From an uncultured Chloroflexia bacterium (GTDB taxonomy: Bacteria; Chloroflexota; Limnocylindria; Limnocylindrales; CSP1-4): a stretch of 64,000 nucleotides of DNA. This document shows positions 35,618 to 53,213 of the stretch, in pieces. Under the pieces are notes generated by a model. It was not told the DNA's origin, ran no database searches, and worked only from the letters and a program-made list of their open reading frames with translations. The position numbers were made by a program, and so were the translations under genes. The stretch lies in NCBI GenBank assembly GCA_963734535.1, contig CAVTHS010000011.1, forward strand, positions 146,894 through 210,893. Direction: 5' to 3'. The first letter of the stretch is position 1. Each line of letters opens with the position of its first letter.

Positions 35618-35632
35618 GAGTCAGGTGAGGCC

Positions 35633-35720
35633 TGCTTCCTTCGCTGGTACGAGCCAGATCAGGTTCGGCGGGTCTGTGGCTGGTGCCACACTCTCAGCGC
35701 TGTGCGCTCCCCGGAGGCGA
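35633..35720 (-). promoter_or_regulatory. TPP riboswitch
   Basis: Minus strand reads GGGGAGC..GCTGAGA..GACCC..GAACCTGATCTGG..TACCAGCGAAGGAAG; upstream of thiD; TATACT -10 box at 35738-35743. Confidence 0.95.
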
Positions 35721-35847
35721 TCTTCAGTTCGGTCGGCAGTATACGGGATGGCCGGATCGCGGCGGCGGGTGGCCCAGGGCGTGCAGAACGGCGCGAGGGC
35801 GTTCGCGACGCGTCGGGGCTATCCTCCGGTGAGTGTCATCCTCCTCT

Positions 35848-48672: not shown

Positions 48673-48733
48673 CCCGCGATGATACCGGGAGACCGCCTGA
48701 AGGCCCGTCACGGGGCGGGGAGCAAGGTGCCCG

Positions 48734-50066
48734 TCACCAGCCTGGCAGCAGCTGCCGGTCCAGCCACTCCGCCGGCTCCATGCGCGGCCGGATCAGGGAC
48801 GATCTCCCGCCGCTGATCGCGACCTCGGCCGGGATCGGGTGGCTCAGGAACAGCGGCATCGACTCGGTGAAGCCGTACGCACCCGTGTCGAGCACGGCGA
48901 CGAGGTCGCCGACGGCCGGTGCGGGCAGCCGTGCGTTGGCCGCGAAGATGTCCAGCCCGGAGCAGAGCGGCCCGGCGATGGTGACCGGCCACGAGCGAGC
49001 GGCCCGTGCGCTGGCTCCAAGGATTCGCACCCGGTGCTCCTGCCCGACGAGAGCCGGCCGGACCAGGTGATGGACGCCTCCGTCGAGGATGGCCACCTCT
49101 GCCTCGCCGACACGCTTGCGGTCGACGACCCGCGCGACATACGCACCGGCGGTCCCCACGAGCCAGCGGCCGGGCTCCAGCAGCAGCCGGAGGTTGCGCA
49201 GGCCCGGCGTGGTCGCCCAGCCCTCCGCGACCGACGCCACGCGGCGCCCGAAGCCGGCCACGTCGAGCGACTCCTCGTTGGGCTCGTATGGGATCCCGAG
49301 GCCACCGCCCGCGTCCACGAGGCGAAGCTCCACCCGGGCGTGCCCGGCCACCGCCCGCGCCAGCTGCACCGTCTCGGCGACGTGAGCCGCCAGGCGGCTC
49401 GCGTCGAGGACGTTCGACGCGCCGAAGCGGTGGATCCCGAGCAGCTCCAGGTGGGACGACCGGGCGGCCGTCCGCGCCGCCGCCCGCAGGTCCGGCTCGT
49501 CCATGCCGAACTTCCCGGCCCCATCGTCGCCGACGAGCCGGACTCGCTCCAGGCCGTCGGCCATCCCGACGGACGCCCGCAGGAGGATCGGGCACCCGCC
49601 TGCCCGCGGCTGACGCGGTCGCCTCGAGGCGGTCGAGCTCGCCCGGCAATTCGACCGTGATCGCGCGCACGCCGGCCGCGACGGCATCGCGCAGCTCCGC
49701 GTCACGCTTGCCGGGGCCCGTGACGACGATCCGGTCCTCGGGGATGCCCGCCCGGCGCGCGGTGGCGAGCTCGCCGCCGGAGGCGACGTCCGCGCCGAGC
49801 CCGAGGGAGCCGAGGTGGGCGACGATCGCGAGCGCCGGGTTGGCCTTGACCGCGTACGCGATCTCGACGAATGGCGGCAGGGCCGCCCGCAGCGTCTCGA
49901 CCTGGCGCTCGATCACGTCGAGGTCGTAGACATGGAACGGCGTGCCGTACAGCGCCGCGAGGTCGGCCGGGTCGAGCCCGCCCAGCCGGTCGCCCCGCAG
50001 GATCTCGTTGCGGGCCGGCGGCCGCCCGCGCCGCGGCGCGTCGATGCCCGGGGCCGGCGTCGTCAT
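48734..50066 (-). CDS. lysA: Diaminopimelate decarboxylase-like fold-III PLP enzyme (frameshift near 49605)
   Basis: GTPFHVYD, YAVKAN, DVASGGEL, KFG, DAGGGLG, EPGR, GPLC and TGAYG; last gene of the dap operon. Confidence 0.78.
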
Positions 50067-50959
50067 CGGAGCGCGTCCTCCAGCGCGACCCGCGCGTCGG
50101 TGCGGGCGTCACGCTGCTTCACGATGAGGGCGACCTGCCCACCGAGCCCGTGCTCCCCCGCGAACTCGCCCGGGAGCGAGCGCGTTCCCGGCACGACGAC
50201 GGCGCCCGGCGGCACGCAGAGGGGCGCGTCGGGCGTCCCGGCCAGGACCCGCTCGCCGACGAGGTCGTACAGGCGCGACGTCCCCGTCAGCGTGACCCCC
50301 GCAGCCAGGACCGCGCCCCGCCCGACCAGCACGCCGTCGAGCAGCAGGCAGCCCGCGCCGACGAACGCATCGTCCTCGATGATCACGGGCCGCGCACCGG
50401 CAGGCTCCAGGACGCCGCCCACCATGACCCCCGCCGAGAGGTGGACGCGCGCCCCGACCTGGGCGCACGAGCCGACGAGCACGTGCGAGTCGACCATCGT
50501 GTCGGTCCCGATCCAGGCGCCGACGTTCACGTACGACGGTGGCATCAGCACGACGCCGGGCTCGAGGTGCGCGCCCGCCCGGATCGACGTCCCACCGGGC
50601 ACGATCCGCCACGGCCGACCGGCGGCCGTCGCGGCCCGCGCATCCGGGGAATCCGTGACGTCCTTCGGGGGCAGGCCGACCCGATCCACGAACCCGAACG
50701 TCTCGCCGGCGGACCACCGCCGGGTGGCGCGGTCGGCGAAGAGCGCCAGGATGGCGGCGCGCGCGCCGGGGTCGAGCCCCCAGCCGCCAGCCGCCCCGGA
50801 ATCCGGCGCTGCCGCCCGGAGGCTCCCCGACTCGAGGGCGGCGATGACCTCGTCCGCTGCCTGGGCCGCGGACGCTGCCACCGTCGCCGCGGCCGTCGCC
50901 GGCGTCCCGGCAGCAGGGGCCGAATCCCCCGCTGCCGCGGCACGGCTGCCCGCGCTCAT
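50063..50959 (-). CDS. dapD: Tetrahydrodipicolinate N-succinyltransferase
   Basis: RIVPGG, MPPSYVNVGA, MVDSHVLVGSCAQVG and GGVLEP..PVIIED. Confidence 0.9.
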   Translation of the reverse strand: MSAGSRAAAAGDSAPAAGTPATAAATVAASAAQAADEVIAALESGSLRAAAPDSGAAGGWGLDPGARAAILALFADRATRRWSAGETFGFVDRVGLPPKDVTDSPDARAATAAGRPWRIVPGGTSIRAGAHLEPGVVLMPPSYVNVGAWIGTDTMVDSHVLVGSCAQVGARVHLSAGVMVGGVLEPAGARPVIIEDDAFVGAGCLLLDGVLVGRGAVLAAGVTLTGTSRLYDLVGERVLAGTPDAPLCVPPGAVVVPGTRSLPGEFAGEHGLGGQVALIVKQRDARTDARVALEDALR

Positions 50960-51945
50960 GCCGCCCCCTCGACCGCCATCACGGCCTCCGGCAGTGCCCG
51001 GCCACCGGGGAGCTCAAGGAGGCCGAGCGAGCGGAGCAGGTGCGCCAGTCGCTCACGGGCGTCGTCGTCGAGCGGAAGGAGCGGCCGCCGGACTGCGTCG
51101 GTGGCGAGCCCCATGAGGGCGAGCGCCGCCTTGACCGGGACCGGGTTCGGGGCGCCCCGGAAGTTGGCCAGCATGAGCGGCAGCCACCGCTCGTGGATCC
51201 GCCGGGCATGCTCCCAGTCGCCGGCCCCGGCGGCCGCGCACAGCGCGGCCATCTCGCCGGGGATCTCGTTCGAGGCGACCGAGATGACGCCGTTCCCGCC
51301 CAGCGCGAGGATCGGCAGGGTCCAGGCGTCGTCGCCGGCCAGGACGGCCACGTCCCGCGGCCGCTCGCGGCAGATCCGCGCGATCTGCTCGAGGTTCCCG
51401 GAGGCCTCCTTGACGGCCACGATCCGCGGGTGCGCGGCCAGCCGCAGGAACGTGTCCGCCTCCACGTTCGTGCCGGTCCGCGACGGGACGTTGTAGACGA
51501 CCACGGGCAGCCCGCCCTCGTCGGCGACGGCCCGGAAGTGGCTCTCCAGCATCCGCTGGTCCGGACGGTTGTAGTACGGGGCCACGACGAGGGCCGCGTC
51601 CGCGCCGAGCTCGGCGGCTCGCCGGGTTGCGCGGATCGTCGCGTCCGTGTCGTTCGTGCCGGTGCCGGCGACGATCGTCACGCGCCGGCGCGACGGGCGT
51701 GAGGCCGCCACCTCGACGGTGATCGCGATCAGGCGCTCGCGTTCCGCCTGGCTGAGGGTCGGGGCCTCGCCGGTGGTCCCGCACGGGACGAGGCCGTCGA
51801 TCCCGGAGAGGACCTGCCAGCTGACGAGGCGACGGAAGGCGTTCTCGTCGAGCGCGCCGTCCGGCGTGAACGGCGTGACGAGGGCGGTGAATGCGCCACG
51901 GAGGGCTGGGCGGGCGCGGCCGGGGGAGCGGGCGATGGGGGTCAT
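50956..51945 (-). CDS. dapA: 4-hydroxy-tetrahydrodipicolinate synthase
   Basis: ALVTPF, CGTTGE, PYYN, YNVPSRTG, KEASG, GDD and NPVPVK. Confidence 0.95.
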   Translation of the reverse strand: MTPIARSPGRARPALRGAFTALVTPFTPDGALDENAFRRLVSWQVLSGIDGLVPCGTTGEAPTLSQAERERLIAITVEVAASRPSRRRVTIVAGTGTNDTDATIRATRRAAELGADAALVVAPYYNRPDQRMLESHFRAVADEGGLPVVVYNVPSRTGTNVEADTFLRLAAHPRIVAVKEASGNLEQIARICRERPRDVAVLAGDDAWTLPILALGGNGVISVASNEIPGEMAALCAAAGAGDWEHARRIHERWLPLMLANFRGAPNPVPVKAALALMGLATDAVRRPLLPLDDDARERLAHLLRSLGLLELPGGRALPEAVMAVEGAA

Positions 51946-52013
51946 CGGTGGGTTCCTTTCGAAGGGTCGCGGGGAGGGGAGTCGGCGCGGTCGGGGTCGA
52001 CCGGGTCGCGGCG

Positions 52014-52776
52014 TCAGCTGGCAGCGGTCACCTCCATGCCGCTCGTCGACCTCGAGGACGGCCTCGAACGGGTGGAGGCCTGCCGATCGGGGCTCGGCGA
52101 GGAGCCAGTCGACGGCCGCAGCGACGCCCGAGGCGCAGGCGCCCCGGTCGCGGGCGGTCAGCGTCAGCTCGATCGTCTCGCCGGGGCCGTCGAAGCCCAC
52201 GAGGTGCCGGCCCGGGTTCGTGCCCGCCCGCACCCCGACGACCTCGAGGGTTCCCGTCTCGGCGGGACCGTCGGCCGGGGTGGAGACGCGATCGCGCGCG
52301 GGGTCGACCGCGAGGATGCGCCGTGCGAGGTCGCGAGCCGTGCCCGACGGACGGTCGGCCTTCCCGTGCCGGTGCCACTCGACGATGTACGGCTCGTAGC
52401 CCGGGAGTCGCGCCGTGAGCCGTGCGGCCATCTCCGCGAGCTGCGCGAAGACGAGCGCGCCCGGGCTGAAGTTGGACGCGGCGACCGCGGACGCGCCGCG
52501 CGCGCGCAGCAGCTCTGCGACGGCGCGCCGGTCGGCTTCCCAGGCCGTGGTGGCGATCGCGAACCGACGGACGCCGCCCTCGACGGCGGCCGCGACGTTG
52601 CCGAGGACCGAATCGCCGCGCGACGCGTCGACGACGACGTCCACTCCCGCGAAGGCGGCGGGGTCGTGCCCGCCCGCCGCCGGGCGACCGGCGAGCCGGA
52701 CGGCCATGCCGCGTGCCCCGAGGGCGTCGGCGACCGCCCGTCCGAACGGGCCATCGCCCAGGATCAGTGTCTGCAT
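52014..52776 (-). CDS. dapB: 4-hydroxy-tetrahydrodipicolinate reductase (indel near 3' end fuses it to dapA in the ORF track)
   Basis: ATT, ASNFS, EWHRHGKADRPSGTA, RAG..PGRH and ARDR. Confidence 0.85.
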
Positions 52777-52847
52777 CGTGGTGTCCTCCGCGTCTGTTGC
52801 CATCACGCGGGTCCGCCGGGGAGAGAGGGTCGGTTCGCCGTCGGGCG

Positions 52848-52883
52848 AATTAAGAAGCCGCGGTCACCATCGGTGTCCGCGGC
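52848..52883 (-). terminator. Intrinsic terminator/attenuator hairpin in the dap operon leader
   Basis: Minus strand GCCGCGG-A-CACC-GAT-GGTG-A-CCGCGGC followed by TTCTTAATT. Confidence 0.75.
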
Positions 52884-52934
52884 CCTCGGAGCCTCCGTTC
52901 CCTGGAGACCCCCGGTCGTCGTCTGCGCGCGCCG

Positions 52935-53012
52935 TCAGAGCCCCAGGGCCCGTGCCTCCCGGCAGGGCCGCCAGGGCTTCTTCGCCTCGTTCGAGACAAG
53001 ATGCCGGCGCAT
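52935..53012 (-). CDS. Putative lysine-sensing leader peptide MRRHLVSNEAKKPWRPCREARALGL
   Basis: ATG 7 nt after TATGGT; tandem AAG AAG codons; followed by a terminator and then dapB. Confidence 0.65.
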   Translation of the reverse strand: MRRHLVSNEAKKPWRPCREARALGL

Positions 53013-53138
53013 GGCGCGGACCATACCCTGTCCCGGCCGTTCGGCGCAACCATTTGTCCGCACCACCTCTCCTGGCGTTGCGGGCGCTGAAGCCGGGCAC
53101 ACCGGCCGGCCGTGTGCCGGGTATCGTCTACGCCGCGT

Positions 53139-53213
53139 GGGCCCGTAGCTCAGCGGCAGAGCGAGGGACTTTTAATCCCTGCGTCCTGGGTTCGAATCCC
53201 AGCGGGCTCACCA
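53139..53213 (+). tRNA. tRNA-Lys (anticodon TTT)
   Basis: Acceptor GGGCCCG/CGGGCTC-ACCA, D arm GCTC..GAGC, anticodon arm AGGGA-CTTTTAA-TCCCT, T loop GGTTCGAATCC. Confidence 0.97.

Follow-up and report, generated by a model that had tools for sequence, protein, structure and literature searches.

A probable lysine-codon leader-peptide attenuator ahead of the dapB-dapA-dapD-lysA genes of an uncultured Chloroflexota lineage

The leader of the dapB-dapA-dapD-lysA genes in an uncultured Chloroflexia bacterium very probably works as a transcription attenuator in which the ribosome senses charged tRNA-Lys. The known controls of DAP-pathway genes are lysine riboswitches, T-boxes and feedback on the enzymes. 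In the window, which is the whole analysed stretch of 64,000 nucleotides, a conserved short ORF, codons matched to the product of the pathway, and a predicted intrinsic terminator were found before the first gene of the operon. The anatomy of the leader, its conservation, and a codon swap in its paralogues were observed directly.

Anatomy and conservation of the leader

The elements of the locus are listed below in window coordinates.

53139..53213, plus strand: divergent tRNA-Lys(UUU) gene, adjoining the leader promoter
53044..53049, minus strand: -35-like hexamer TTGCGC, 18 nt before the -10-like hexamer
53020..53025, minus strand: -10-like hexamer TATGGT
52935..53012, minus strand: leader ORF of 25 codons plus TGA, with its ATG at 53012, 7 nt after TATGGT
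52977..52982, minus strand: putative sensing codons AAG AAG, at positions -3 and -2 before a Trp codon
52964..52971, minus strand: region 1, the proposed switch strand, GCGGCCCT, with two alternative predicted partners, one inside hairpin A and the other the terminator 5' arm
52939..52978, minus strand: hairpin A, the putative protector inside the ORF, from the minimum-energy fold
52888..52912, minus strand: hairpin B, the middle hairpin, from predicted folds
52848..52886, minus strand: predicted intrinsic terminator, whose GC-rich stem (52884-52856) and U tail are both interrupted
52785..52789, minus strand: Shine-Dalgarno (SD) sequence GGAGG of dapB
50956..52776, minus strand: divergent dapB plus dapA, in one frame in the assembly
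50063..50959, minus strand: dapD (NF008808, 244.5 bits, over the cut-off)
48734..50066, minus strand: lysA-like decarboxylase gene, in two frames in the assembly, with TIGR01048 matches on both halves

The operon genes were assigned using NCBIfam models. The dapB gene starts with the ATG at 52776 and matches TIGR00036 with 87.5 bits, under the cut-off of 122; dapA matches TIGR00674 over the cut-off (305.7 bits), and each of the two TIGR01048 matches of the lysA-like gene is under the cut-off. In relatives dapB is a separate, shorter frame, whereas here dapB and dapA form a single frame. This single frame and the split lysA suggest indel errors of the assembly. Many ORFs near dapB-dapA (50956-52806) and lysA (48708-50066) also appear frameshifted, probably by sequencing indels. 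A protein in the same cluster as DapD carries the label Candidatus Limnocylindrales, which belongs to the Chloroflexota class Limnocylindria. A second copy of the whole region (G000:C12:1-29150) has 84-98% identity to C11; with genome contamination at 7.1%, it probably comes from another strain binned together with this one. Fourteen metatranscriptome RNA runs contain minor portions of the stretch; four of these runs were examined as contigs only, and these contigs came from relatives. Elsewhere in the window there is a TPP riboswitch (35618-35723, minus strand, 65.2 bits).

The tRNA-Lys(UUU) gene was found upstream in 17 loci, 82 loci having at least 300 nt of upstream sequence, and the loci with this neighbour belong mostly to the source genus. 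The genome also encodes tRNA-Lys(CUU), and the Lys codons of the leader are AAG only. The tRNA-Lys(UUU) gene is probably a neighbour that lies outside the switch.

An earlier note on this DNA had described TATGGT, followed after 7 nt by an ATG that opens a 25-aa ORF with a Lys-Lys pair, and each of these elements was located at its place in the sequence. The note had also called the ORF leaderless. The spacing between hexamer and start is kept in the family, which agrees with this description; for the start site itself, we infer from the sequence that transcription probably begins at or beside the ATG. A simple promoter scanner called no promoter at the leader, where the hexamers have 7/12 consensus matches. 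Related leaders were collected using a pattern of 25 nt within the ORF's 3' half, which excluded the Lys codons, the start, the stop and the promoter. At least 120 metagenome stretches were retrieved. Distinct leaders numbered 135, and 128 of them have enough upstream sequence; in these, the promoter was assigned first and the start codon sought after it. A TTG-led hexamer 16-18 nt before the -10-like hexamer was placed in 125/128 leaders. In five of the 128, the 4-12 nt interval downstream of the best -10 contains no start codon. Among the other 123, the start codon is 6-7 nt past the -10 in 98, and the Lys frame is shared by 119 start codons, the other four being in another frame. These 119 leader ORFs have 9-14 codons before the Trp codon, and 112 of them stop at the same codon (TGA in 95, TAG in 13, TAA in 4). 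Conservation of the ORF in relatives, which the earlier note had proposed as a check, was thus found for start, frame, stop and Lys codons. Codons in the N-terminal part differ freely from leader to leader. Near-invariance at the nucleotide level, third positions too, marks the 3' half of the ORF; the invariance of the 25 nt behind the Lys codons is by construction, because the search pattern fixed those nucleotides. A DNA search for the leader gave matches in 21/61 genomes. Other leaderless leaders were sought across the genome with criteria so strict that even the dapB leader escaped them. At G000:C2:142547 on the minus strand, a further short ORF that may be leaderless carries His-His-Phe-Phe-Phe codons and precedes a strong hairpin and a T run.

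The AAG AAG pair represents the sole Lys codons of the window's leader ORF. At the Lys frequency of this genome, the chance of adjacent Lys codons in a 25-codon frame is about 0.6%. Across the family the consensus is K-x-K, with the lysines four and two codons before the Trp codon (-4 and -2). In the pattern-found set, Lys is present at -2 in 119/119 ORFs, at -3 in 106/119, and at -4 in 111/119. Each ORF contains two or three Lys codons, every one of them AAG; in the long ORFs of the genome, AAG and AAA account for 1.55% and 0.05% of codons, respectively. Lys leaders found by a covariance model have Lys at -4 in 60/64 and at -2 in 62/64, and the middle codon is variable. Two of the misses at these positions, L237 and L219, appear one base out of frame. 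A pattern search for K-x-K plus the switch strand in 301 genomes was discarded, since the reversed control was about as frequent.

Folding analysis showed that the leader is more stable than 200/200 shuffles (z -4.06). The GC hairpin with a tail that had been noted before dapB is present; its energy is -22.4 kcal/mol for 52886-52852, and the tail reaches 52848. In a 72-sequence alignment, which is biased by the search pattern, the two parts of the terminator stem are 99.5% and 98.6% paired, and four pairs have two-sided changes. Hairpin A is paired in 97.1% of cells, with one two-sided pair change; hairpin B is 81.8% paired, some rows being out of register; the antiterminator is 98.8% paired, with no covariation.

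As the note had claimed, GCGGCCCT (52971-52964) is perfectly complementary to AGGGCCGC (52886-52879), and the candidate antiterminator helix proposed from this match is conserved in diverged leaders, with compensatory changes. In this diverged set, all seven core pairs are present in 61/64 Lys leaders and 28/29 leaders with Met codons (described below). Full compensatory changes in the core were found in L258 and L218; their small number reflects how little the core varies. In L045/L092, L204 and L309, nucleotides inserted just ahead of the terminator lengthen the helix, as judged by eye. A second pairing had been claimed between AAGAAGCC over the Lys codons and GGCTTCTT in the terminator tail (52859-52852). 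It is perfect here, but it is not conserved in relatives, as all eight pairs occur in only 10/61 leaders, and it was rejected as a conserved element. An alternative antiterminator, formed by the 3' half of the ORF and the terminator 5' arm, is 97.7% paired with no covariation. Diverged leaders, for example L244 and L249, disrupt this alternative and keep the region 1 helix; the alternative might represent at most a minor state.

The covariance model matched 81/122 genomes of the family, and 0/28 genomes of a sister family with small genomes. In a phylum sample, 2/10 genomes of one other family of the class were matched, with no match in the remaining families or beyond the class. A gene-first search found dapB of the locus type in 75/200 other genomes of the class. 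All of the 58 dapB-positive genomes common to both searches have the leader no more than 150 nt upstream, and five more dapB loci inspected also have it, four of them outside the model searches. With the same query, dapB of the locus type was absent in 10 checked genomes free of the Lys leader, bar one distant match. Leader and operon thus occur together; the relatives are kin, not independent samples. A related-locus search with dapB gave three distant loci only, and a plasmid search with dapA gave nothing relevant. The Lys leaders L064 and L068 have no tblastn match to the locus dapB in the 800-1400 nt downstream.

Methionine-codon paralogues

Among the weaker matches of the covariance model, 60 listed places were selected by score, and 95 matches were examined. 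Another long ORF, and no dapB, is downstream of 31 of these 95 matches. Two were dropped, namely L224, a partial match that has Met at -2 alone, and L271, a duplicate of L270, leaving a Met set of 29. In all 29 leaders, Met codons occupy positions -4 and -2, and their register relative to the switch strand is the same. Thirty downstream ORFs were tested, of which 22 were categorized as Cys/Met PLP enzymes, two as OsmC-like and three as other proteins, with three unmatched; the three compared with TIGR01326, O-acetylhomoserine sulfhydrylase, pass it. A Met copy is also present in the source genome, at C11:73564 on the minus strand (L291:1900-2160), with M-C-M before the same switch strand. The genes behind this copy encode an O-acetylhomoserine sulfhydrylase and, probably, a homoserine acetyltransferase; the copy has no Rfam match at E up to 1. 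The same scaffold is thus found with codons that match the downstream pathway, which is the strongest evidence for sensing through translation.

We moderately favour the view that these leaders belong to one modular family of attenuators, whose constant RNA switch is re-programmed by two codons, Lys before the DAP operon and Met before metY. The x-codon-x motif would then lie exactly at the leading edge of the ribosome, before the 7-nt switch strand. At one locus (L219:1501-2205, G235), a Lys leader before dapB and a Met leader are found back to back, about 350 nt apart; here the Met leader is followed by an SCO4226-like ORF, and the Lys leader has no obvious in-frame ATG. The Met leaders L278, L228, L276 and L224 have OsmC-like, polyketide-cyclase-like and rhodanese genes downstream, which may be unrecognised genes of the sulfur or methionine pathways.

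Proposed switch and rival explanations

For the working of the switch, we infer the start site, translation, stalling, termination and the folding order. RNA polymerase would initiate at or beside the ATG, and a ribosome would load on the leaderless start. When lysine is scarce, the ribosome would stall on the AAG codons and hide the lower 5' arm of hairpin A. Region 1, about 12 nt from the P site, would be just beyond the leading edge of the stalled ribosome; it could pair with the emerging terminator 5' arm, closing a long rod. In the stalled model, the arms of hairpin B change partner and pair with the ORF's 3' half, giving a long rod beneath the antiterminator helix. The terminator would be blocked, and dapB-dapA-dapD-lysA would be transcribed. 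When lysine is plentiful, the ribosome would cross region 1, finish and depart; hairpins A and B and the terminator would then form, and transcription would end near 52850.

Nascent RNAs that end before the terminator 3' arm were folded with a ribosome footprint of -14 to +12, a helix being defined as at least 5 bp. The sets included 61 Lys and 28 Met leaders (L237, L233, L219, L224 and L271 were excluded). In these models, a stall that put the A site at -4, -3 or -2 gave the antiterminator in 46, 53 and 35 of the 61 Lys leaders, respectively; it formed in 21/61 without a ribosome, and in 0/61 with the ribosome at codon 0 or +3. The Met leaders gave 28, 28 and 26 of 28 at the same A-site positions, 12/28 when ribosome-free, and 0 and 0/28 at codons 0 and +3. 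In the window's leader, the predicted helix has 6.5 bp with the stall at the first Lys codon, 0.8 at the second, and 0.9 in free RNA. With a ribosome at the stop codon, the antiterminator formed in 44/61 Lys leaders, also in the window's leader, and in 22/28 Met leaders. This modelled result counts against a simple static model; the OFF state would need prompt ribosome release and local refolding of hairpin A. For the full-length RNA at equilibrium, the terminator wins in every ribosome state, and it likewise wins for E. coli thrL in the same test. The equilibrium test is therefore uninformative, and the switch must be kinetic.

The output of the stalled ribosome might also be different. It could act mainly on dapB translation, by release of the RBS, or on Rho-dependent termination, the hairpin being an inefficient intrinsic terminator; the mycobacterial polycysteine leaders provide a model for this, as far as the available part of their description goes (bioRxiv 10.1101/834739). 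Such a route would fit the interrupted U tail, the interrupted stem at which a simple scanner calls no terminator, and the 63-149 nt from the terminator arm to the dapB start. It would also fit the anti-SD-like CCTCC/CCCTC found between the terminator and the SD in 29/49 leaders. However, 54/61 Lys leaders have at least five T within 10 nt after the stem, and a T-rich run directly follows the stem in 28/28 Met leaders. Moreover, when the terminator 3' arm is freed, SD exposure barely shifts (median 0.12 vs 0.17), going up in six and down in four of the 49 leaders analysed (of 62). A translational switch on the dapB SD is unsupported by this folding, and we consider the route as a whole improbable.

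Direct sensing of a small molecule by an uncatalogued riboswitch or a protein-binding RNA, with the ORF being incidental, is still less likely. The near-invariance of the ORF 3' half down to third positions does show constraint at the RNA level; however, it can be accounted for by the two pairing partners of each strand. Start, frame and stop are kept with interchange of stop codons, and only the codons of the scaffold differ between the lysine and the methionine genes. Exclusion of the known RNA classes by Rfam had been advised in the earlier note, and neither the lysine riboswitch (RF00168) nor the T-box (RF00230) was matched at the locus at E up to 10. Both likewise control lysine genes by premature termination, but their models do not match here. 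The Rfam search of the locus, at the gathering score and at E up to 10, gave the tRNA and chance-level matches only. RF00168 is also absent from the genome, and the same search was positive in 4/14 control genomes. Two weak, sub-cut-off T-box-like matches are found on other contigs (C2:127120-127392 and C3:337262-337485; 48.9 and 32 bits).

An explanation resting on the peptide K-x-K motif named in the available part of PMC12583479 is hardly credible: K-x-K is the family consensus, but the downstream genes make lysine, M-x-M takes its place before methionine genes in the paralogues, and the peptide lacks conservation in its N-terminal half.

Relation to known attenuators

Attenuation of transcription through charged tRNA-Lys remains the preferred reading, and the leader as read here would work like the classical attenuators; it belongs to no catalogued family. 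The leader-peptide attenuators of E. coli include trpL, thrL, hisL, leuL, pheL and ilvL, whose mechanism is given in the available parts of PMC4007540 and PMC8079986. According to these, they share with the present leader a short ORF with codons for the product and a biosynthetic operon downstream; their mutually exclusive protector, antiterminator and terminator pairings resemble those predicted for the present leader. However, the present leader concerns lysine and the DAP operon, is probably leaderless, and has no match to an Rfam leader family. Its antiterminator strand is 5-8 nt past the sensing codons, in the 5' arm of the protector, whereas the classical strand is in the 3' arm. Unlike the classical attenuators, there is a third hairpin between the protector and the terminator.

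Leaders with leaderless starts have been reported in other high-GC bacteria. Deinococcus deserti has 14 putative leader peptides, nearly all of them leaderless (PMC4007540, available part); this set might include a lysine leader. In Streptomyces lividans, eight leaders were reported, including a Met leader (metL) before a methionine importer, and the available part of PMC8079986 contains no Lys leader. The mycobacterial polycysteine ORFs are leaderless and act on translation (bioRxiv 10.1101/834739, available part). As far as these sources extend, all three groups share with the present leader a leaderless start, a high-GC host, and amino-acid-specific codons. For Sinorhizobium, the accessible text of PMC10117765 describes a putative leader, rich in Thr and Lys, ahead of the gene for an aspartate dehydrogenase. 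A literature search that covered few subscription journals found no lysine leader peptide before dap genes; the available parts of PMC12612679, PMC13178558 and PMC3556520 contained nothing relevant, and term searches of the accessible text of PMC3356886 and PMC12998189 gave no matches.

The principle of attenuation is classical, so the surprise is limited. For lysine, a leader-peptide attenuator was reportedly described by Tsubouchi and co-workers (J Biol Chem, 2005) for the aminoadipate cluster of Thermus thermophilus, upstream of hcs. Tandem Lys codons in the leader ORF and attenuation of lysine synthesis would be shared, in another pathway and another phylum. The claim that the mechanism was undescribed therefore holds for the DAP pathway and for this lineage, within the searched literature, and does not hold for lysine if the Thermus report stands.

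A leader-peptide attenuator at this locus would bring the DAP operon, and an uncultured class of Chloroflexota, into the range of ribosome sensing. The pair of Lys and Met leaders suggests that the specificity of an attenuator changes through the swap of two codons, and it might be helpful as a tunable lysine or methionine sensor for high-GC production strains. If the modular reading is true, this would be the first ribosome-sensed control of a DAP operon, and a codon-programmable attenuator would have replaced the lysine and SAM riboswitches at both operons in a soil lineage.
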